Source: Dehalococcoidia bacterium
Lineage (GTDB): Bacteria > Chloroflexota > Dehalococcoidia > UBA2979
DNA length: 64,000 nucleotides
Direction: 5' to 3'
Assembly: GCA_965247895.1 (NCBI GenBank)
Contig: OZ252046.1
Location: forward strand, 1,975,155-2,039,154
Shown here piece by piece: positions 2,461 to 47,664 of this stretch. A model generated the notes under the pieces. It was not told where the DNA came from. It ran no database searches and saw only the letters and a list, made by a program, of their open reading frames with translations. Every line of letters begins with the position of its first letter. Position 1 is the first letter of the stretch. A program made the position numbers and the translations under genes.

Positions 2461-3052
2461 AGAAGTCGAGGCCGAGCGGGTCCACGATCTCCTCGCGCAC
2501 GAACTCGCCGGGCCGGCGGCCGCTCACGCGGCGGACGATCTCGCCGATGATCCAGCCGTAGGTCCACACGTGGTAGCCGTGGCGAGTGCCGGGCTCCCAC
2601 CACGGCTCGGCCTCGGCCAGCGCCGTGGTCATCGTCTGCCAGTCGTAGCAGGCCTCCTTCGGCAGCAGCCGCCGCGCGCCGACCACACCCGAGCGGTGCC
2701 CCAGCACGTGGCGCACGGTGACGCCTTCCTTGCCCGCCTGCGCGAACTCCGGCCAGTAGCTGGCCACGGGCGCCTCGATGTCCACGAGTCCGCGGTCGGC
2801 GAGCATGTGCAGGCCGAGCGAGAGCAGGCCCTTCCCGGTCGAGTAGGCGTTGACGATCGTGTCGCGCTCCCAGGCGCGAGTGCCCGCGGCGTCGGCGTGT
2901 CCCGCCCAGAGATCGACCACCGGCTCGCCATCGATGGTGACGGCGACGGCGGCGCCGATGTCGCCGCGCTCCGTGAAGTTCTGCTCGAACTCCTCGCGCA
3001 CCCCCGCGAAGCGAGGATCGCACTCGCCGCGGATCTCGACCTCTGACGTCAT
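2343..3052 (-). pseudogene. serine hydrolase (beta-lactamase-fold esterase/PBP family), 3'-truncated remnant (~236 N-terminal codons)
   Basis: ATG at 3052 (MTSEVEIRGE...). S-x-x-K active-site motif (STGK) ~70 aa from the start and coherent protein-like sequence down to ...AMAHNNPP at ~2343. Beyond that the frame becomes Arg-rich antisense of the replication-relaxation gene. No KTG/HxG third motif, and the length (~240 aa) is far short of the ~380-420 aa usual for the family. Confidence 0.5.
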
Positions 3053-3187
3053 GCGTCGCCTCCTTCGCGCCGGTACGCCGCCGCCGCGCTGGCGCAGCGT
3101 ACGACAGGCCCGAGGAGGGTGCAGGCCCCGGAGCGGGCGCGAGTACAATCGCCTGCGGGAAGATCCGAAGCCGGTACGGGGGCCCGC

Positions 3188-5296
3188 ATGAACGAAGAGC
3201 AGAGCGCGCCCCCTGAGACGCACTTTGACGCCGACCGCCCAATTGAACGTCGTGAGCAGGACCGCCTGGGCAGGCGGTCCTTTGCCGAGGCGATCGCGAA
3301 GCAGATCCTCGCCGTTCCCGCTGCACAGGGATTCACCATGGCGGTTGTGGGTGAGTGGGGAGCCGGCAAGACATCGGTACTCAACATGGTCGCCGAGACA
3401 GTCGCGGGCGACGACGGCGGCCCGGCCATCCTCCGCTTCAACCCGTGGCTCTTCAGTAGTGCGGACGACCTAGTGAGGCGGTTCTTCACTGAACTTGGCG
3501 CACAGCTCCATCAAAGACAACACCCGGGGCTGAAGGACGTGACGACGGCACTGTTCGAGTTCGCCGAATCTGCAGCACCACTGATCCCCATGCCCGGCGC
3601 GGTCCCGGCGGTGAAGCTGCTGAGTAAACTCACCAACCGCTCGACAAGACCACCGAGCCTACTTGAGACGCGTAGTCGACTCAGCCAAGCTCTCGCTAAG
3701 TCTGGTTCGAGGATCGTTGTCCTCATTGATGACATCGACCGGCTTGAGCGCCGCGAGATACGCGAAGTGATGCGATTGGTGCGCCTGACATCTGATTTGC
3801 CAAACCTTGTCTTCTTGCTCGCATTCGATAGGGCCCGTGTGGCGAGCAGCCTGAACTGGGACAAGGACGGGGACGACGGCCAACAGTACCTGGACAAGAT
3901 TGTTCAAGTGAGCCACGACGTCCCCGTGGCACGCAAGGCGACCCTGACCGACATGCTCATAGCCGGGCTCAATGAGCTTATCGAGGCACGCGATCTTGGG
4001 GACCCCGACCGGGAAGTGTGGGTGAGCGTCCTCTACGAAATGCTGAGGCCGCTCCTTGGTAACCCCCGGGACGTCAAGCGCTACCTGTACTCGCTGCCCG
4101 TGACCCTCGACGCTGTCGGGCACGAGGTGGCGCTGGCTGACCTGCTCGGGCTAGAAGCGGTTCGGGTCCTCAGACCGAAAGTGTTCGACGACTTGAGGGC
4201 ACACGCCGACTACCTCGTGCACTCGGAGTCCCGAGCGCAGCTCTTCATGACACAAGACGAATTCAAGCGGAAGGTTCGGGACGAGCTCACGGCAATGCTT
4301 GAGCGTGCTGCAGGTGACCGCGTGCTGTTGGAGTCCGTGCTCAGGACTCTGTTCCCGGTGACGCAAGAGTTCCTCTCCAGCACCAGCTACGGTCCCATGT
4401 CGGACGGATCTTGGCGAAGGCAGCGACGTGTCGCTTCCGGCGAAGTGTTACGCATCTACCTGCAGGCCGCGCTCGACGAGGTAGCACTTCAATCGAGTGA
4501 GGTTCAGGAGCTAGTAGACGCCCTCACTGACGAAGATAGGCTTTCCCAGCTGCTCGACTCCTTCGACGACCAGCGCTTCGAGGAGGCCCTCGAACGTCTC
4601 GGGGACTTCGAGTATGAGTTGCCTTCCGAGGCCCTGCCGGCAGCTGTACCCGTGCTCGTGAATAGGATGGGAGGGCTCAGTGAACGCTCTGCAGCGCCGT
4701 TCGAACTCTCACCGCGACGGAAGGCATACCGTGTCGTTCTGTTCATTCTTCGACGAGTCGCGGACAAAGCAGCCCTCGCGGGCTCCTTGCCCGCGGTGCT
4801 GGCGAAGATCGATTCCTTGTCGGGATGGCTGGAGGTGGTCGAATTGGTTGGCCACCGCGATCGAGTTGGACCGCAACTCGTCGACATCGCGGACGCGACG
4901 AAGCTCGAACATCAGCTGGTCGAACGACTGAGATCAGCATCGGCGCGGGAACTTGCGGGCGAGTGGAGCCTCGCACGTTTGTCAATGCGGGCGCTGGCTT
5001 GGCTTGAGGGTCAGGACAAAGACCGGCTCGCCGGGCGACTGCGCGAACACCTCAGTGAAGACGGATTCGTTCTCACTCTGCTCCACACGAGCGTCGGCTA
5101 CGCATACTCCGGCAGCGATGTTCGTAAGCTTCTTTCTTGGGACGCCCTCGTGGAGGCGTTCGGTGATGAACTCCCCGATGCGGTCGACAGACTCACCCGC
5201 TCTCAAATCTACGAGGACGCATCGGACGACGATCGCGACACCATCGATCTGGCTCGGAAGTACGCGTCGGGCGAGCGCCCAGACGAATGGGAGTAG
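3188..5296 (+). CDS. KAP-family P-loop NTPase (large predicted NTPase, ~700 aa)
   Basis: Start MNEEQ at 3188 inside the longer ORF 3119-5296. Walker A (VVGEWGAGKTSVLNMV) and Walker B-like (IVVLIDDIDRL) motifs with KAP-type spacing, plus a long alpha-helical C-terminal region. Local GC is visibly lower than in the flanks (many A/T-ending codons between 3480 and 5300). Confidence 0.7.
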   Translation: MNEEQSAPPETHFDADRPIERREQDRLGRRSFAEAIAKQILAVPAAQGFTMAVVGEWGAGKTSVLNMVAETVAGDDGGPAILRFNPWLFSSADDLVRRFFTELGAQLHQRQHPGLKDVTTALFEFAESAAPLIPMPGAVPAVKLLSKLTNRSTRPPSLLETRSRLSQALAKSGSRIVVLIDDIDRLERREIREVMRLVRLTSDLPNLVFLLAFDRARVASSLNWDKDGDDGQQYLDKIVQVSHDVPVARKATLTDMLIAGLNELIEARDLGDPDREVWVSVLYEMLRPLLGNPRDVKRYLYSLPVTLDAVGHEVALADLLGLEAVRVLRPKVFDDLRAHADYLVHSESRAQLFMTQDEFKRKVRDELTAMLERAAGDRVLLESVLRTLFPVTQEFLSSTSYGPMSDGSWRRQRRVASGEVLRIYLQAALDEVALQSSEVQELVDALTDEDRLSQLLDSFDDQRFEEALERLGDFEYELPSEALPAAVPVLVNRMGGLSERSAAPFELSPRRKAYRVVLFILRRVADKAALAGSLPAVLAKIDSLSGWLEVVELVGHRDRVGPQLVDIADATKLEHQLVERLRSASARELAGEWSLARLSMRALAWLEGQDKDRLAGRLREHLSEDGFVLTLLHTSVGYAYSGSDVRKLLSWDALVEAFGDELPDAVDRLTRSQIYEDASDDDRDTIDLARKYASGERPDEWE

Positions 5297-5411: not shown

Positions 5412-6143
5412 ATGCACGAGACGCTGAGCATCGAGCACGAGGGCGGGGTCGCGACGCTGACCGTCACCCGGCCGCCCGTGAACGCGCTCAGCCTCGTCAT
5501 GCTCGAGTCGATGGCCGAGGAGCTGCACCGCCTCGGCGACGATCCCGAGGTGAGCGCGATCGTCTGGCGCAGCGGCGTGCCCGGCATCTTCAGCGGCGGC
5601 TTCGACCTCAACGATCCGCGCAGCGCCAGCGCGCAGCCGCTGCACTTCCCGCCCGGCGACCACCTGGCGCGCGTGCGCAATGCGCAGACCGCGCTGCTCG
5701 ACGTGCCCGTGCCGATCATCGTCGCCGTCAACGGCGCGGCGGTCGGCCTCGGGATGCTGATGCCCGCGCTCTGCGACATCGTGATCGCGGGCCGGAGCGC
5801 GCGCTTCGGGCTGCCGGAGATCCAGATCAACTCGATCGGCGGGGCGGGCCACGCGCGCCGCATCCTGCCGGAGCCGGTGCTGCGCTACCTGATGCTGACC
5901 GGCCGCCGCGTCACACCCGAGTACCTCCAGCAGTGCGGCGCGATCGCGCTCGTCGTCGAGGACGACGACCTCGACAGCGAGGCGCAGGCGATCGCCGCCG
6001 AAATCGCCAGCTACGATCCCGTCGTCGTGCGCAACTCGAAAGTCTCGCTGGAGGCGCTGCGCACGATCGACGACGTGGCGCTCGCCTACTCGCTCGAGCA
6101 CAAGTGGGGCGCGGCGCTCCGCCTGTCGCGCCAGCAGGGTTAG
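5412..6143 (+). CDS. enoyl-CoA hydratase/isomerase (crotonase) family protein
   Basis: MHETLSIEHEGGVATLTVTRPPVNAL..., oxyanion-hole GGFDL and VAVNGAAVGLG motifs; ATG at 5412 within ORF 4953-6143. Confidence 0.7.
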   Translation: MHETLSIEHEGGVATLTVTRPPVNALSLVMLESMAEELHRLGDDPEVSAIVWRSGVPGIFSGGFDLNDPRSASAQPLHFPPGDHLARVRNAQTALLDVPVPIIVAVNGAAVGLGMLMPALCDIVIAGRSARFGLPEIQINSIGGAGHARRILPEPVLRYLMLTGRRVTPEYLQQCGAIALVVEDDDLDSEAQAIAAEIASYDPVVVRNSKVSLEALRTIDDVALAYSLEHKWGAALRLSRQQG

Positions 6144-20336: not shown

Positions 20337-21660
20337 CCCTCACCCCCGCCCTCTCTCCCACGAGGGGTTAGACACCCCATGGTGCTAACTGGTCAAGCGG
20401 CGAGCTGCTCGCGGTCGTGGCGGTGCGCCCAGGCGGTGGCCTCGTCGTAGGGGCGGCGTGTCCTGAGGCAGCCGTGGAGGTAGCCGACGAGGCGGTTGGC
20501 GAGGGCGCGCAGCGCCTGGTGATGGAGGTCGCCCGCAGCGCGCCGGCGGCGGTAGAAGTCGTGGCAGCCCGGGCTCGCCCGCAGCGAGCACAGCGCCCAG
20601 CGGTCGGCGGCGTCGGCGAGCCAGCGGTTGCGGACGAAGCGGGCGCGCACGCTGCGTTTGCGGCCCGATGCTACGGTCAGCGGTGAGGTGCCGGCGTAGT
20701 TCCTGCGGGACTTCGCCGACTCGTAGCGTTCGGGGTCGTCCCCGAACTCTCCGAGCACCCGGGCGCCGAGCACGACACCGAGTCCGGGCAGGGAGCGGTA
20801 GATCGCGGCGTCCGGGTGCTGCTCAAAATGTGCCAGCTCGGCCTCGAGCTCCTTGATCTGGCGGTTGATCTCGCTGATCTGCGCGACGGCCGCGCGGGTG
20901 CTCGCGGCGAACGCCCTGCTCACGGCAGCAGGCGCCTCGAGCTGCGGGGAGCGCAGCGCGTCGCGGACCACGGCGGCGCGCTGCTCGAGGTTGCGCTGGC
21001 GGCCGCCGCGGCTGAGCGCCGAGCGGATCTTTGCGGTCGACAGCCGCGCCGCCTCGCGCGGGCCGGGCGCCCGGGCCAGCACGCCGACGGCGTCGCCGTG
21101 GGCGAGGTTGGGGAAGGCCACCAGGGCGGCCGGGAAATACTCCCTGAGGGCGTTGCGCAGCCGGTTGGTCTGGCGGACGCGGTCCCAGATCAACTGCTGG
21201 TGGGCGCGGGCGAGAATACGCACCGCGGCGGCCTCGTCGCTGTCGCCGGCCACCGGGCGGTGGTTGTGGCGGTCGGTGCGGACGAGGTCGGCGAGCAGCT
21301 TCGCGTCGCCGGCGTCGGACTTGGCGCCGCCGACATGGTGACGCTCGCGGTAGCGCGCCGCCGAGCGCGGGTTGATCGCGTAGACACGGTAGCCGGCCGC
21401 GAGCAGGGCCGAGACCCAGGGTCCGCGGTCGATCTCGATCCCGATGACGACTTCGCCCGGGTCCGAGGCGTGCTCGGCGATCAGTTCGTGCAGGGCGGCG
21501 ACGCCCGCGACGCCTTCGGGCAGCCGCCTGGCGGCGAGCCGTTCGCCGGCCTCGTTCATGAGCTGGATGTCGTGGTGGTCCTCGGACCAGTCGTCGCCAA
21601 CGTACAGGGTCATCGTGCCTCGCTTCCCTCCGCTTCGTGCTGCTGGCTGCGACCCGGTGG
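20337..21660 (-). mobile_element. IS110-family insertion sequence (IS-A), complete copy
   Basis: Carries the transposase gene 20393-21613. Its right end (~20337, CCCCTCACCCCCGCCCTCT...) is shared with a second, truncated copy at 47712. No obvious terminal inverted repeats, as usual for IS110. Left end approximate. Confidence 0.7.
20393..21613 (-). CDS. IS110-family transposase (DEDD + Transposase_20 domains)
   Basis: MTLYVGDDWSEDHHDIQLMNEAGE... N-terminal DEDD block; C-terminal ...GLGVV...RYESAKSRRNYAGTSP.T.ASG...R. pattern typical of IS110/IS1111 transposases. Start at 21613 within ORF 20393-21712. Confidence 0.8.
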   Translation of the reverse strand: MTLYVGDDWSEDHHDIQLMNEAGERLAARRLPEGVAGVAALHELIAEHASDPGEVVIGIEIDRGPWVSALLAAGYRVYAINPRSAARYRERHHVGGAKSDAGDAKLLADLVRTDRHNHRPVAGDSDEAAAVRILARAHQQLIWDRVRQTNRLRNALREYFPAALVAFPNLAHGDAVGVLARAPGPREAARLSTAKIRSALSRGGRQRNLEQRAAVVRDALRSPQLEAPAAVSRAFAASTRAAVAQISEINRQIKELEAELAHFEQHPDAAIYRSLPGLGVVLGARVLGEFGDDPERYESAKSRRNYAGTSPLTVASGRKRSVRARFVRNRWLADAADRWALCSLRASPGCHDFYRRRRAAGDLHHQALRALANRLVGYLHGCLRTRRPYDEATAWAHRHDREQLAA

Positions 21661-34553: not shown

Positions 34554-34629
34554 TGGCGCGCCGGGAAGGATTCGAACCCTCGACCATCAGATCCGAAGTC
34601 TGACGCTCTGTCCCCTGAGCTACCGGCGC
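34554..34629 (-). tRNA. tRNA-Arg (anticodon UCG), 76 nt including an encoded CCA
   Basis: Folded by hand into a canonical cloverleaf: acceptor GCGCCGG/CCGGCGC, U8-A9, D-stem GCTC/GAGC, anticodon stem TCAGA/TCTGA, loop CTTCGGA (U33, G37), 5-nt variable loop, T-arm GAGGG-TTCGAAT-CCTTC, discriminator G, CCA. Confidence 0.7.
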
Positions 34630-42968: not shown

Positions 42969-43337
42969 ATGCACATCGCGCTGATCGCCCTCGGCGGCGC
43001 GGCGGGCGCGCTGCTGCGCTACGGCGTGAGCGAGTGGGTGACGGCGCCGCGCGGCGGCTTCCCGCTGGCGACGCTGCTCGCGAACATCAGCGGTGCCTTC
43101 CTGCTCGGCGTCGCCTCGCTGCTGCTCGTGCGCCTCGAGGTCTCCACGGCGCTGCGGCTCGGCCTGACCGTCGGCGTACTCGGCGCCTACACCACCTTCT
43201 CCACCTTCAGCGTGGAGACGCTGGACCTGCTCAACGACGGCGAGTGGCGGACGGCCGCGCTCTACGTCCTCGCCAGCGTCGCGGGCGCCCTCGCTGCGGC
43301 GTGGGCCGGGCAGAGCCTCGCGCGGGCGACGGGGTAG
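42969..43337 (+). CDS. crcB: fluoride channel CrcB/Fluc
   Basis: 122 aa, four TM helices, GALLRY and TTFSTFS signature motifs. Confidence 0.8.
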   Translation: MHIALIALGGAAGALLRYGVSEWVTAPRGGFPLATLLANISGAFLLGVASLLLVRLEVSTALRLGLTVGVLGAYTTFSTFSVETLDLLNDGEWRTAALYVLASVAGALAAAWAGQSLARATG

Positions 43338-43405
43338 GGGGGCAGTTGCTGCTACTGGCGGGCGCAACGTGCTCTTGACCCCTCTCTCCACACAATAGTA
43401 TCGTT

Positions 43406-43852
43406 GTGTATGTGATACCAGAATTCGAAGCTGGCGGACTCCTCCCACCCGGAGTCCACTGGGCGACCTGGGACGAATTAGTCGAGAGATTCGGGACGAA
43501 CCCGTGGAGGCAACACCTCTTGACCGGACTCAGAGCCGCACTGGAGAACCTGCAAGTCGCGGGCTGCCGGACCGTCTACCTCGACGGGAGCTTCGTGACG
43601 AGCAAGGCGGTCCCGAACGACTACGACGCCTGTTGGGAAGAGGCAGGCGTCGATCCGGATGTCCTCGATCCCGTTCTCCTGACCTTCGACCCCGGGCGAG
43701 TGACGCAGAAGGCCAAGTACCTGGGGGAGTTGTTCCCTGCGTCGTTCGTCGCCGATCAGGACGGGCTGTCGTTCCTTGAGTTCTTCCAAGCGGACAAGGA
43801 CTCCGGGGAGCCCAGGGGGATCATCGCGATAGACCTGGGAGGCCGCATGTGA
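43406..43852 (+). CDS. minimal nucleotidyltransferase (MNT/pol-beta superfamily; DUF6932-like?)
   Basis: GS-x9-DxD motif (YLDGSFVTSKAVPNDYD) typical of pol-beta-type NTases. 148 aa; low-GC leader; stop overlaps the next start (ATGTGA). Confidence 0.5.
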   Translation: MYVIPEFEAGGLLPPGVHWATWDELVERFGTNPWRQHLLTGLRAALENLQVAGCRTVYLDGSFVTSKAVPNDYDACWEEAGVDPDVLDPVLLTFDPGRVTQKAKYLGELFPASFVADQDGLSFLEFFQADKDSGEPRGIIAIDLGGRM

Positions 43853-44259
43853 TCAAGAACGAGCGCCAATACCGGATCACCAAGACCCAGGCGACCCGCT
43901 TCGCGCAGACCCTGGAGAGCCTCGCGAGGCGCGCCGACGAAGACTCGGGGATTCACCCCCGTATCGCCCAGGCTCGGGAGGACGCGCTGAGAAGCCAGCT
44001 CGGAGACCTTGAACGGGAGTTGCGCGAGTACGAGTCCTTGAAGGCGGGTGGATTCGAGCTCGACGAACTGAACGTGTTCGCTGAGCTGGCAACGTTCCTG
44101 ATCAAGGCACGGATCGCGCGGGGCCTGAGTCAAAGGGAGCTGGCGGACCGCATCGGGTTGAAGGAACAGCAGATCCAGCGCTACGAGGCCACCGATTACG
44201 CATCCGCCAGTCTGGCCCGGATCAAGGAGGTCGCGAGCGCCCTGGGCGCGACTGGCTAG
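43849..44259 (+). CDS. XRE-family HTH protein with N-terminal coiled-coil region (candidate partner of the NTase)
   Basis: C-terminal HTH_3 signature (RGLSQRELADRIGLKEQQIQRYE); translationally coupled to the upstream NTase. Confidence 0.55.
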   Translation: MIKNERQYRITKTQATRFAQTLESLARRADEDSGIHPRIAQAREDALRSQLGDLERELREYESLKAGGFELDELNVFAELATFLIKARIARGLSQRELADRIGLKEQQIQRYEATDYASASLARIKEVASALGATG

Positions 44260-44260
44260 C

Positions 44261-44366
44261 CCCGCGCAGCCGCCACCCCGTACAGCAGCCCCTCCACCTC
44301 CCGAGGCGGCCGCCCAGCGCCGCTCCGGGGCGACGGGGAGCGGGGCGCAGACGTCGATCTCGGTGA
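44261..44366 (-). pseudogene. remnant of the 3' end of an LLM oxidoreductase gene (paralogous to the end of 48681-49571), internally deleted
   Basis: 44277-44307 and 44315-44360 match 48703-48733 and 48821-48866 (CGTACAGCAGCCCCTCCACCTCCCG..., GCTCCGGGGCGACGGGGAGCGGGGCGCAGA.GTCGATCTCGG.GAAGTCGCGG). Confidence 0.55.
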
Positions 44367-44375
44367 AGTCGCGGC

Positions 44376-44596
44376 CTGCTGCTCGTGCGCCTCGATGTCT
44401 CCACGGCGCTGCGGCTCGGCCTCACCGTCGGCGTGCTCGGCGCCTACACCACCTTCTCGACCTTCAGCGTGGAGACGCTGGACCTGCTCAGCGACGGCGA
44501 GTGGCGGACGGCCGCGCTCTACGTCCTCGCCAGCGTCGCGGGCGCCCTCGCGGCGGCGTGGGCCGGGCAGAGCCTCGCGCGGGGGGCGGGGTAGGG
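44376..44596 (+). repeat. direct duplicate of the crcB 3' end (copy of 43119-43340), giving a 69-codon crcB fragment
   Basis: About 95% identity over 222 bp; the two copies flank the NTase/HTH cassette and the LLM remnant. Confidence 0.75.
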
Positions 44597-44646
44597 GTGC
44601 CGGCTAGAGCATCGTCGAGGTCAGCGCCGAACGGCGTCGCCGACGG

Positions 44647-47600
44647 TCAGTAGTTGCCCAGGAAGACGATCGTCCCCTCGGCCGTCACTGCCGCGGTGTG
44701 GTAGTGCCCGGCGCTCACGTCGATGAAGGAACCCTCGGGCAGTGAGTTGGTATCGAAGGAGTCATCGAGCCAGCACTCCACGGCGCCCCCGGCCGCCGCG
44801 CCGCAGGTGAGAGTCGGCCCCGCAGTCCTGTAGGGAAAGTCCTTGCCCCAGCATCTGATCGAGCCGTCCGCCTTCACGCCGCAAATGTGCGTCTTAGCCG
44901 AGCTGATCGATGTGAACGTGCCAGCGGGAGGCGTGGTCCGGTCGGAAACGTGCGGGGGGCCCCAGCACGAGATGGTGGCGTCGCTTCTCAACCCGCATGA
45001 ATGCGAACCACCAACCGCGACCGCGGTAAACGTCCCGTCCGGGGGCGTGATCCTGTTGCTGTCGTAGATGTCGTAGCCCCAGCATGCGACGGAGCCGTCG
45101 GTCCGCACTGCGCATGAGTGGTCTTCTCCAGCGCTGACGGAGCTGAAGGAGCCGTCCGGCGACGCAGTCCGGCCGTAGGCGCTGCTACCCCAGCATGTCA
45201 GTTCGCCGCTGGTTCTCACCGCGCAGGTGTGTACTTTTCCGGCGCTGATGGAGACGAACGTGCCGTCGGGCTCAGCAGTCTGACCCCTCTTCCCCCAGCA
45301 GTCGACCGAGCCGCCGGTTCTCAGTCCACACGTGTGGTACTGCCCGGCGCTGACGGCCGTGAAGGATCCCCCGGGCGGGGTGGCTTGCCCGATGAACTCG
45401 CCCTCGAGGTTCTGGTCTGAGCCCCAGCACTCGATCGCGCCGTCTGTCATCAGCCCACACGTATGGTGCTCGCCGGCGCTGACGGAGATGAAGGACCGAG
45501 TTGCGGAACCGGCCTCCCGATCCACGGTTCCAGCGGCCGAGTCGCCGGCGGCGGGTGAGCCCGTCGCGGAGAACGAGGGCTTCGACAGGATTGAGTCCAG
45601 GCCCCAGCACGCGACTGTTCCATCGGGTCGGAGGCCGCACGTGTGGCGCCACCCGGAGGTGACCGATGTGAAGGAGCCCCCGGCCGGTTCGGCCAGACCG
45701 CCGGGTTCGAAGTCTCGGGCCTCCTCAAGAGTCCAACACACGACCGAGCTGTCGGTCATGACCCCGCAGGTACCGGCCAGCCCGGCGCTCACGGATGTGA
45801 AGGGGCCGGGATGGAACGTCGTTACCTCGGTGTGGTTGTGAGGCTTCCAGCAAATCACCGAGCCATCCGTGAGCACCCCGCAGGCATGGAAGAACCCGGA
45901 GCTGATGGATATGTATCGACCCTCGGGCGTCTCCTCGGGGTCGGCCGTGTCGAAGCCCCAGCATGCCGTGGAGCCGTCCGCTCTCAATCCGCAGCTGTAG
46001 TTAGCGGCGCTGAGCTCGATGAAGGATCCATCCGGCGGCGACGTCAGGCCGTTCTGATCAGGACCCCAGCAGGTGACCGAGCCGTCTGCCTGGATCCCGC
46101 AGCTGTGAAACCATCCGGCGCTGACGGCCACGAACGAACCCGAGGGCGGCGTTGCCCGCCCCGCGAACTCCCCGTCCCGTCCCTCGTTGGATCCCCAGCA
46201 CAGCACGGAACCGTCGGTCCGCACGCCACAGGAGTGCTGCCGTCCGGCGCTCACGGCCGTGAAGGAACCGCCGGGCGGCGTGGCCTGACCCAGGCGATCA
46301 TCGCCCCAGCATGCGACGGCCCCGTCGGTCCGTACCCCGCAGGTGTGGTAGAACCCCGCGCTCACCGAGGTGAACGACCCGGCAGGCGGCGTGGCCTGCC
46401 CGTAGTCCGCGATGTTCCAGCAAATCAGCGAGTCGTCCGTCCTCACACCGCAGACCTGGTCCGTTCCCGCGCTCACCGAGCGGAAGGGGCCATCGGGAGC
46501 GGTGCCCAGGCGATTGAGGTCGAGCCCACCGCCTTCGGAGGGAACCCAACACGTCACAGAGCCGTCGCTTTGCAGCCCACACGAGTAGAAGTCGCCGGAA
46601 CTGATGGATGTGAACGAACCCGCGAGCGGTGTGTGTGGGCCAAGGTCGTCGCCCCAGCACACGACGGAGCCTTCCGTGTCGAGCGCGCAGGTGTGTCTCT
46701 GCCCGGCGCTGAGGGCCGTGAACGACCCGGTTGTGGGTGCATCGCGCTGGCGGTAGTAGTTGTCTCCCCAGCAGGTGATCGAGCCGTCGCTCCGCAGCCC
46801 GCAGCTATGGATCCACCCGGCGCTGACGGAGGTGAACGTGCCCTCGGGCGCTGACTGCTGCTCTTCGCCCCAACACACGACCCGGCCGTCGCCCCTCACC
46901 CCGCAGGTGTGAGCGTCTCCGGCGGCGATCGCAACAAAAGCCTCGACGGGTGGCGTGGCCTGCCCCTTGAAGTACCCCGCACTGTCGTTCGATCCCCAGC
47001 ATGCGACCGAGCCGTCGGTTTGGATGCCGCAGGTGTGATGGAGCCCGGCGCTGACGGAGACGAAGGAACCGGGCGGCGGGGTGGCCTTGCCGACAAAACC
47101 GCCGTCCTCGTCCAGGTTGGAGCCCCAGCAGATGACCGAGCCATCGGTCTTCACGCCGCACGCGTGATCCCTCCCGACGGTGACGGACGCGATGGACCTT
47201 GCAGTGGGACGAGGCGTAGGCAGGACGCGGGGCGTCGCGGCGGGTTCTGCCGTGGACTCCGGTGCCGCCGTCCCTTCCGGCACGGACCCGACCTGCTGGT
47301 CGCCGCCATCGAGCGTGGCGAGGACGAGCAGCACTACCACCACTATAACCACAACGACCGAGCCGCCCAGCGCCGCGCCCGTCCACACGAGCGGACGCCC
47401 GAGAGATTCGAGCGTCGCAGGCAGAGCGATGAACCCGAGCACGCGCCGGCGCTCGGGACGCCAAGCGGCGAGCTGCTCGCGGTTGTCGAGCTCGAGCTTC
47501 CCGAGCATGTTCGAGATGTGGTACTTGACGGCGTCGAGGCTGACGCCGAGTCGCTCCGCGATCTCGGCGTTCGTGCCGCCCTTGCGCAGCTCGTTGAGCA

Positions 47601-47664
47601 CGCGCTGCTCGGCGGGGGTGAGGATCTCGGGATGGGGTGGGCGTCCCCGCCCTCGGCGTGTCAT
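44647..47664 (-). CDS. membrane-anchored LuxR-family regulator: N-terminal GerE/LuxR HTH, one TM helix, ~22 tandem RCC1-like (RCC1_2-type, ~38 aa) repeats
   Basis: HTH: TPAEQRVLNELRKGGTNAEIAERLGVSLDAVKYHISNMLGKL. TM: VVVVIVVVVLLVLATL. Repeat unit: ATPPxGSFTSVSAGxxHTCGLRTDGSVxCWGxN..GQ, with 114-bp DNA periodicity from ~44700 to ~47200. Confidence 0.7.
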   Translation of the reverse strand: MTRRGRGRPPHPEILTPAEQRVLNELRKGGTNAEIAERLGVSLDAVKYHISNMLGKLELDNREQLAAWRPERRRVLGFIALPATLESLGRPLVWTGAALGGSVVVVIVVVVLLVLATLDGGDQQVGSVPEGTAAPESTAEPAATPRVLPTPRPTARSIASVTVGRDHACGVKTDGSVICWGSNLDEDGGFVGKATPPPGSFVSVSAGLHHTCGIQTDGSVACWGSNDSAGYFKGQATPPVEAFVAIAAGDAHTCGVRGDGRVVCWGEEQQSAPEGTFTSVSAGWIHSCGLRSDGSITCWGDNYYRQRDAPTTGSFTALSAGQRHTCALDTEGSVVCWGDDLGPHTPLAGSFTSISSGDFYSCGLQSDGSVTCWVPSEGGGLDLNRLGTAPDGPFRSVSAGTDQVCGVRTDDSLICWNIADYGQATPPAGSFTSVSAGFYHTCGVRTDGAVACWGDDRLGQATPPGGSFTAVSAGRQHSCGVRTDGSVLCWGSNEGRDGEFAGRATPPSGSFVAVSAGWFHSCGIQADGSVTCWGPDQNGLTSPPDGSFIELSAANYSCGLRADGSTACWGFDTADPEETPEGRYISISSGFFHACGVLTDGSVICWKPHNHTEVTTFHPGPFTSVSAGLAGTCGVMTDSSVVCWTLEEARDFEPGGLAEPAGGSFTSVTSGWRHTCGLRPDGTVACWGLDSILSKPSFSATGSPAAGDSAAGTVDREAGSATRSFISVSAGEHHTCGLMTDGAIECWGSDQNLEGEFIGQATPPGGSFTAVSAGQYHTCGLRTGGSVDCWGKRGQTAEPDGTFVSISAGKVHTCAVRTSGELTCWGSSAYGRTASPDGSFSSVSAGEDHSCAVRTDGSVACWGYDIYDSNRITPPDGTFTAVAVGGSHSCGLRSDATISCWGPPHVSDRTTPPAGTFTSISSAKTHICGVKADGSIRCWGKDFPYRTAGPTLTCGAAAGGAVECWLDDSFDTNSLPEGSFIDVSAGHYHTAAVTAEGTIVFLGNY

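Follow-up and report, generated by a model that had tools for sequence, protein, structure and literature searches.

A DUF6932–Xre gene pair between crcB repeats in a Dehalococcoidia genome as a putative toxin-first two-gene module

What might a small nucleotidyltransferase-like protein do when its gene is coupled to one for a helix-turn-helix (HTH) protein of the Xre family? The question is raised by a 64,000-nucleotide (nt) stretch of DNA from a Dehalococcoidia bacterium (Chloroflexota; GenBank assembly GCA_965247895.1, contig OZ252046.1, positions 1,975,155 to 2,039,154 of the forward strand), hereafter the window, in which two such genes occupy positions 43406–44259. An earlier note on this DNA had proposed the pair as a candidate toxin–antitoxin (TA) or abortive-infection cassette. 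Our analysis favours, with a rough probability of 0.5, a self-contained module of two genes that is autoregulated, moves horizontally and belongs to the toxin-first type II TA or abortive-infection kind, in which the toxicity of the first gene product is putative. The parts are of known kinds, and their combination is undescribed.

The two genes lie on the forward strand and overlap by 4 nt, GTGA, inside the string ATGTGA. The earlier note had reported open reading frames (ORFs) of 148 and 136 amino acids (aa) coupled in this way, and both ORFs and the overlap are borne out; the 5′ boundary of the first (43406–43852, 148 aa, GTG start) needs revision. The true start of gene 1 is probably the GTG at 43412, giving a 146-aa protein that begins MIPEF (43412–43852), because most homologues are 145–147 aa long and start at the same aligned position, and because 43406, the alternative upstream start, falls within a conserved operator, 2 nt after the −10 element. 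Gene 2 (43849–44259, 136 aa) also starts with GTG, and its product, the putative antitoxin and autorepressor, consists of a conserved N-terminal region (residues 1–75) and a C-terminal Xre/Cro HTH (residues ~80–135).

Gene 1 belongs to Pfam family DUF6932 (PF22014), with a score of 134.3 bits and an E-value of 5.2e-39 over residues 5–143, aligned to profile positions 1–142 of 142 (gathering score, 27 bits). DUF6932 was among the families that the earlier note had suggested comparing by hmmscan; gene 2 matched HTH_3, and the match of gene 1, to a family with a probable nucleotidyltransferase (NTase) fold, does not refute the note's proposal. In NCBIfam no model matches gene 1, and in PADLOC its sole match is the candidate PDC-M63A (E 2.9e-10). 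DUF6932 counts 2,081 clusters at 90% identity and 2,066 clusters at 50% identity with E ≤ 0.001. The earlier note had not recognised the pairing; with ~2,000 clusters at 50% identity, the DUF6932–Xre pair is a large conserved family and no oddity of the window. In Makarova et al. (2009; PMC2701414), HEPN is the sole partner listed for minimal nucleotidyltransferases (MNTs), and RelE and PIN are the only toxins listed with Xre-COG2856 fusions. Literature searches for DUF6932 returned no papers, and searches on DUF4186 and on NTase, Xre and ImmA in combination returned nothing about the DUF6932–Xre family.

The motif that had first drawn attention to gene 1, GS-x9-DxD, is present as G61-S62-x9-D72-x-D74. 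Across 40 representatives sharing 40–64% identity with the window protein, G53, G61, S62, P70, D72, D74, F127 and G138 do not vary; among close homologues, conservation of E108 is 90% or higher.

The partner gene accompanies gene 1 strictly. We collected 87 close loci from two exact-protein look-ups and a genome scan; the 40-sequence diverse alignment was too variable for the scan and a closer alignment of 13 sequences was used, with the consequence that the 80 genome loci are biased to relatives 62–99% identical. An HTH partner lies directly downstream of gene 1 in all 87, with hosts in Dehalococcoidia, other Chloroflexota, Latescibacterota and Caldilineaceae, an outcome opposite to the absence of co-occurrence that the earlier note had named as grounds for giving up its proposal. 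Of 100 loci compared, 91 have the 4-nt overlap. The same pairing is found in relatives 42–60% identical on plasmids of Nostoc, Calothrix, Microchaete, Marinibacterium, Agrobacterium, Roseovarius and Acinetobacter, as well as in Dehalococcoides mccartyi, a Helarchaeota metagenome-assembled genome (MAG) and other contigs. On a Mesobacillus plasmid (31% identical) the pairing is looser, with the HTH gene ~400 nt downstream. Most of the distant relatives examined keep the HTH gene, the exceptions being fusion proteins of Klebsiella and Aliarcobacter. In these, encoded on a Klebsiella IncF/HI1B plasmid (L093:3001–4179) and an Aliarcobacter plasmid (L094:2995–4170), DUF6932 is the N-terminal domain of a protein of 391–392 aa with no Xre gene downstream; the gene that follows the Klebsiella fusion partially matches the PADLOC OloA model.

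Upstream of gene 1, a promoter and a palindrome are interlaced. The only sigma-70-like site in 43250–44700 is TTGACC-18-TATCGT (mean in shuffled sequences, 0.0), with the −35 element at 43375–43380 and the −10 element at 43399–43404 of the forward strand. The −10 element lies inside a 20-bp palindrome, ACACAA-N8-TTGTGT (43390–43409), whose single occurrence in the window compares with a chance expectation of 0.01. Among 84 distinct homologous upstream regions, the half-sites match at 12 of 12 positions in 62 and at 10 or more in 80, the palindrome ends 1–2 nt before the start codon in 80, and TTGAC stands 8–9 nt upstream of it in 56. The family consensus is TTGAC-N8/9-ACACAAT-g-n-TAT-n-G-TTGTGT, followed within 1–2 nt by ATG or GTG, and the upstream regions are otherwise unrelated; many loci carry an extended-10-like TG (T-g-n-TAT-n-GT in the consensus). 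Furthermore, every one of the 88 palindromes found at 11 or more of 12 positions in 745 kb of fetched loci is just upstream of a DUF6932 gene, and the loci include cyanobacterial, alphaproteobacterial, Dehalococcoides and Helarchaeota ones and distant ones with a longer partner. One long-partner locus (L103:3377–3424) has two tandem palindromes, 28 nt apart and ~76 nt before the called start codon.

The likely reader of this palindrome is the product of gene 2. Its HTH_3 domain spans residues 85–133 (E 2.7e-10), matches of the family profile to 434 Cro, C.BclI, HipB and HigA are confined to the HTH, and the probable recognition helix, KEQQIQRYE, is nearly invariant. Because the −10 element sits inside the operator, we infer that an HTH dimer of gene 2 probably represses its own operon, occupation of the palindrome switching both genes off. 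Transcription would start ~7–8 nt past the −10 element, at the GTG at 43412, and the bicistronic mRNA would be leaderless or nearly so, because promoter and operator end 1–2 nt before the start codon. The invariant operator and nearly invariant recognition helix form a clean protein–DNA pair, and a possible orthogonal repressor part.

The setting of the pair fits acquired DNA. As had been noticed before, it sits inside a duplication of crcB sequence: the intact crcB gene (42969–43337) contributes its 3′ end as the first copy of a 225-nt direct repeat (43119–43343, forward strand; repeat family D1), and the second copy (44376–44600, forward strand), 96% identical, is an orphan crcB 3′ fragment. 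The 1,032-nt segment inserted between the copies (43344–44375, forward strand) contains the promoter, the operator and both genes, and its GC content is 0.62–0.65 vs 0.71–0.77 in the flanks, so that the cassette is indeed richer in AT than its host. We rejected the view that the two crcB copies are ordinary tandem paralogues, given their 96% DNA identity and the restriction of the second copy to a 3′ fragment; in a related contig (L001), PF02537 (CRCB) matches the equivalents of both the gene and the fragment (53 aa). The last 38 nt of crcB recur once more in degenerate form between the HTH gene and the second repeat (44308–44345, forward strand; repeat family D2, 74% identity); this third copy is a weak match that may be the trace of an earlier event at the same site, and the crcB 3′ end looks like a site of repeated DNA gain. 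The same arrangement is present in three related contigs, at 95.8% (L008, a Dehalococcoidia MAG), 91.7% (L001) and ~93% (L053) DNA identity. Because it is common to three related genomes at 92–96% identity, the insertion is not recent and predates these lineages.

Relatives show the same mobility on a wider scale. Cassettes ~80% identical occupy unrelated chromosomal sites, and others reside on conjugative plasmids and as Tn7 cargo beside blaNDM-1. Together with the lower GC content, these contexts support the proposal that the cassette behaves as mobile DNA. Neighbours of the relatives include a Type ISP restriction enzyme, a NACHT protein, a DUF262 protein and a reverse transcriptase with a helicase.

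How could such a module work? In the reading we favour, gene 1 would encode a divergent minimal polymerase (pol) beta-like NTase that binds a nucleoside triphosphate and Mg2+ through G61-S62, D72-x-D74 and E108 and, in the manner of MenT/AbiEii or MntA, adds a nucleotide to a target in the cell, probably the 3′ end of an RNA or the hydroxyl group of a protein; through this transfer it would act as a growth-inhibiting effector. Gene 2 would be translated by coupling through the GTGA overlap, and its N-terminal region would bind and neutralise the gene 1 product. This region, residues 1–75, is conserved with the pattern MIKNERQYRITKAQA...HP...A..DAL.SQL.DLE.EL.EYE.LK.G and looks helical. The earlier note had assigned to gene 2 a coiled coil followed by an XRE HTH; the HTH part stands, and for the coiled coil there are only weak Protein Data Bank (PDB) matches to coiled-coil proteins (E 0.16–0.38), with no solved relative. 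Were gene 1 a toxin with a new nucleotidylylation target, the pair would found a new TA or abortive-infection family. An effector role would supply a function for DUF6932, which is present in several bacterial phyla and one archaeal MAG and has none assigned, and it would add a pairing of minimal NTase and Xre to those of known TA systems.

The architecture resembles that of toxin-first type II systems. Two small, adjacent, co-directional and coupled genes (4-nt overlap), found together in 87 of 87 close loci, are accompanied by an HTH_3 protein and a conserved palindrome over the −10 element, where its binding is putative. Like HigBA and MqsRA, the pair places a small putative effector gene first and the putative antitoxin second, with the genes overlapping, has a palindromic operator that overlaps the promoter, and is patchily distributed and mobile. 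In addition, gene 2 resembles MqsA in layout, with an N-terminal part that would bind the toxin (putatively in gene 2) and a C-terminal Xre HTH. Unlike in those systems, gene 1 is unrelated to the RelE, HigB and MqsR RNases, and the N-terminal region of gene 2 has no detectable relative among solved antitoxins.

In distant loci the partner is often much longer. Many partners there are 414–488 aa long and add a C-terminal ImmA/IrrE (M78) peptidase domain with an HExxH motif, and those of 414–429 aa match PADLOC PD-Lambda-2_B (E 1e-74 to 1e-78). The full length of gene 2 (residues 1–134) aligns with the N-termini of these Xre-M78 proteins, at 56% identity in Nostoc and 42% in Marinibacterium; judged from this alignment, gene 2 is a short form corresponding to their N-terminal part. 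Partners of 162–395 aa without HExxH also exist and suggest truncation of the long form.

Three architectures can be distinguished. The first, that of the window, has two genes and a partner of 130–172 aa, and partners of 130–159 aa account for 81 of 100 sampled loci. The second consists of DUF6932, a 414–429 aa Xre-M78 protein and a Beta_protein (PF14350) that matches PD-Lambda-2_C. The third has at least four genes: DUF6932 is followed by a 481–488 aa Xre-HExxH protein and DUF4186, then by a radical-SAM-like protein of ~335 aa and another large gene. Operons of this third kind lie at L098:3501–7441 (D. mccartyi, CP011127) and at L100, L103, L088, L096, L072, L078, L082, L083 and L087, in Dehalococcoides, a Helarchaeota MAG, Nostoc, Roseovarius and several Dehalococcoidia MAGs, with the same upstream operator; a literature search found no paper that describes an operon of DUF6932, Xre-HExxH, DUF4186 and a radical-SAM-like gene. 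The window cassette would be a reduced form of these larger DUF6932 systems, in which the partner carries the ImmA/IrrE domain and is followed by a Beta_protein gene or by DUF4186 and the radical-SAM-like gene. As a tentative wider view, which we hold less firmly than the reading of the window pair itself, DUF6932 could be a large cross-phylum family of minimal-NTase effectors on one Xre chassis, with or without M78 and with the same operator in Chloroflexota, Cyanobacteria, Alphaproteobacteria and the Helarchaeota MAG. It would come in three grades: two-gene and TA-like; three-gene and PD-lambda-2-like, with DUF6932 in place of HigB-like; and four or more genes, with DUF4186 and the radical-SAM enzyme.

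The nearest tested system is PD-lambda-2, a validated three-gene abortive-infection system composed of a HigB-like A, an Xre-HTH and ImmA/IrrE peptidase B and a Beta_protein C, the last of which is required for defence (Vassallo et al. 2022, Nat Microbiol; PMC9519451). There too a small gene comes first and one for an Xre-family protein second, and gene 2 is, along its whole length, a homologue of the N-terminal part of B-like proteins. On plasmids of Agrobacterium, Marinibacterium and Acinetobacter, DUF6932 stands at the A position upstream of matches to PD-Lambda-2_B (E 1e-74 to 1e-78) and PD-Lambda-2_C (E 1e-30 to 1e-37). These loci, with DUF6932 in place of the HigB-like A, are L090:2459–5269 (Agrobacterium pAt2788b), L089 (Marinibacterium) and L092 (Acinetobacter pNDM-AP_882); the Acinetobacter locus is Tn7 cargo, and an IS30 element beside blaNDM-1 interrupts its C gene. 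The window pair differs in that its first gene is DUF6932 with no PD-Lambda-2_A match, its partner has no M78 peptidase domain, and no Beta_protein gene follows in the window, the crcB fragment coming next. We rejected its identification as PD-lambda-2 on these three components. The connection with Xre-M78 proteins suggests, for the first position in such systems, an interchangeable slot that an effector or a sensor can fill; it bears on the unexplained toxicity of PD-lambda-2 B and could, if gene 1 is a toxin, offer a handle on how Xre-M78 systems sense infection.

Several findings weigh against the toxin-first reading, some touching the polarity of the pair, some its role in defence and some the chemistry ascribed to gene 1. 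As regards polarity, PD-lambda-2 B is toxic alone when overexpressed and is rescued by the first gene, A (PMC9519451). Because the B protein rather than the first gene was toxic there, the polarity of the window pair is not to be assumed. In the HEPN-MNT system HepT-MntA, the minimal NTase is the antitoxin and AMPylates the HEPN toxin. As regards defence, viral contigs hardly contain the family (4 loci in a protein-based scan of IMG/VR), and the only experimental test of the PADLOC candidate PDC-M63AB, to whose A component gene 1 is distantly similar, gave no defence phenotype (bioRxiv 10.1101/2024.12.20.629700). The other viral searches were also meagre: tblastn of gene 1 against 50,697 phage records gave no match, the 32 matches of the promoter–operator pattern in IMG/VR equal approximately the number expected by chance from a hand estimate and none adjoins either gene, and a PHROG match is distant (phrog_9194, E 3e-8). 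On the chance-level operator matches and the 4 viral loci, we no longer regard phages as the usual carriers of the cassette.

The main rival, unlikely in our estimate, makes gene 1 harmless. DUF6932 would be a modifier or sensor of its Xre partner, acting for example through a nucleotidylylation like that of HepT by MntA or a neutralisation like that of PD-lambda-2 B by A, and the two-gene form, stripped of the M78 domain and of downstream effectors, would be a regulatory remnant or an 'anti-addiction' module that does no killing. The correspondence of gene 2 to the first ~135 residues of the 414–488 aa proteins fits this idea, as do the toxicity of PD-lambda-2 B alone and its rescue by A, the intermediate partners, which suggest progressive truncation, the Beta_protein gene or the DUF4186 and radical-SAM-like genes that always follow the long forms, and the antitoxin role of minimal NTases among the structural matches of gene 1 (8xeo, 6m6u). 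A remnant sits poorly, however, with the predominance of the short two-gene form among the sampled loci and with the invariance of the gene 1 catalytic residues in that form, which argues for a function under selection.

The pattern of gene decay also bears on polarity. Gene 1 is defective in 10 of the 87 close loci, whereas gene 2 has no premature stop and two divergent C-termini. In particular, premature stops interrupt gene 1 in L049, L071 and L086, an internal part of it is deleted in L053, and L026 has the substitution G61E in the catalytic turn; non-canonical codons occupy its start position in L001, L053, L009, L045, L057 and L081 (gene 1 lies at ~3001–3440 in loci from the genome scan and at 6001–6447 in L001). 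That disruptions accumulate in gene 1 and not in gene 2 fits a first partner that is harmful or dispensable and is modest evidence against reversed roles. Some of the defects are possibly MAG assembly errors or alignment-offset artefacts, the latter perhaps applying to L057 and L081, and this tempers the support that they lend to a toxic gene 1.

The chemistry of gene 1 was assessed on a structural model. A first AlphaFold run on 29 close homologues was unusable (predicted local distance difference test score, pLDDT, 43.5) and was replaced by an AlphaFold2 run on a 147-sequence alignment, which gave a model with a pLDDT of 93.1 and a predicted template-modelling (TM) score of 0.88. The modelled elements follow one another as helix 33–52, strand 56–60, G61-S62, strand 74–77, helices and strand 108–111, which, as modelled, is the order of the minimal pol-beta NTase core. 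Specifically, the invariant G61-S62 forms the hG[GS] turn directly after the first core strand (predicted at 56–60), D74 opens the second core strand with D72 two residues before it, supplying the [DE]x[DE] pair, and E108 on the third strand is positioned as the third carboxylate. Of the 50 top Foldseek matches in the PDB, none of them significant, 49 are NTases of the pol-beta superfamily, among them pol beta, pol lambda and TdT, AadA/ANT, the MNT antitoxin 8xeo, MntA (6m6u) and HI0073 (1no5).

The searches that count against this assignment concern significance and sequence. The Foldseek search yielded no significant PDB match (best E 0.19; probability at most 0.30), with TM-scores of 0.30–0.36 when normalised by the query and up to 0.48 when normalised by the target, and nothing significant emerged against viral predicted structures. 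No member of the 147-sequence set matches a Pfam NTP_transf family (NTP_transf_2, Polbeta, DUF1814 or others) at E ≤ 1, sequence and profile searches of gene 1 against the PDB gave nothing relevant, and comparison of the family profile by hhalign with three NTase-like sequences from the fetched loci, two of them MNT-like, gave probabilities below 1%, a weak test with single-sequence targets. Because even a genuine MNT from a fetched locus reaches no better than E ~1e-3 with PDB MNTs, in an alignment limited to the surroundings of the motif, the negative sequence-level links carry little weight. Thus the proposal in the earlier note that gene 1 is a minimal NTase is upheld as to its motifs, which are invariant and lie on the right elements of the model, whereas the fold is probable and not established.

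A second alternative, quite improbable on this evidence, is that gene 1 is no NTase and that GS...DxD arose by convergence in a different alpha/beta fold, in which case the pair would still be an autoregulated module with another biochemistry. Every fold match is below significance, searches by sequence and by profile tied gene 1 to no NTase family, and the invariant features peculiar to DUF6932 (an N-terminal LPPGxH strand, W22, R35, Q128 and K137) have no counterpart in MNTs. Against this alternative, a random fold would be very unlikely to draw 49 of 50 matches from one superfamily, and the GS turn and three acidic residues lie, in the model, on the expected elements in the expected order.

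The last and least likely alternative, that DUF6932 is an accessory small-molecule NTase, for example an ANT-like enzyme inactivating an antibiotic or metabolite, under a dedicated Xre repressor on mobile DNA, can draw on AadA, AAD(9) and ANT(4'') among the best local structural matches (root-mean-square deviation ~3 Å over 47 columns) and on the point of Makarova et al. 2009 (PMC2701414) that mobile operons of enzyme and HTH genes can resemble TA systems, but we regard it as very doubtful given a single 146-aa domain without the C-terminal substrate-binding domain of ANTs, a 4-nt overlap, strict one-to-one pairing and a conserved N-terminal extension of the HTH protein that are typical of protein–protein partnership, an association with Xre-M78 and Beta_protein that points to conflict systems, and frequent pseudogenisation of gene 1.

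The pair can also be set beside other known systems. In MenAT/AbiE, a DUF1814 NTase toxin adds nucleotides to tRNA. The window pair shares with this system and with HepT-MntA a two-gene mobile module and a probable pol-beta-type core with GS and DxD, and the MNT-like 8xeo, 6m6u and 1no5 are the best global structural matches of gene 1 (target-normalised TM-scores, 0.33–0.48). It differs from them in that gene 1 has no Pfam match to NTP_transf_2, DUF1814 or other NTase families and carries an extra N-terminal strand (LPPGxH) and a C-terminal extension, and in that the partner is an Xre HTH protein, not HEPN, AbiEi or MenA. We rejected membership in HEPN-MNT (HepT-MntA) on the identity of the partner, which has no HEPN match, and membership in MenAT/AbiE on the lack of matches of either protein to these families in Pfam, NCBIfam and PADLOC. 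Gene 1 and its relatives match PDC-M63A only distantly (E 3e-10 to 2e-16; 2.9e-10 for the window protein), and no partner in any locus examined matches PDC-M63B, on which grounds PDC-M63 was also rejected. Finally, the pairs of HTH and ImmA/IrrE (COG2856) proteins, ImmR/ImmA, DdrO/IrrE and CapH/CapP, resemble the long-form partners in combining an Xre HTH with M78 and HExxH, and the HTH of gene 2 weakly matches the capH and RmrA models; unlike them, the window protein has no peptidase domain, and their HTH and protease regulate other genes without coupling to a small upstream enzyme.

Beyond the second crcB repeat, a 1,005-aa ORF on the reverse strand (44647–47664) has, judged by eye from the translation, a segment resembling a LuxR-type HTH at its N-terminus, a hydrophobic stretch and numerous RCC1-like repeats with CWG motifs. 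In the closest genome (L008), an IS21-type element, with IstA/IstB-like ORFs likewise judged by eye, lies beside a remnant of the homologue of this ORF. Two further features of the window are unrelated to the cassette. One is a tRNA-Arg(TCG) gene at 34554–34629 on the reverse strand. The other is an Rfam match at 20711–20792 on the forward strand to Ms_AS-4, an actinobacterial small RNA family, which at 67 bits is above the gathering score and is unexpected in Chloroflexota.

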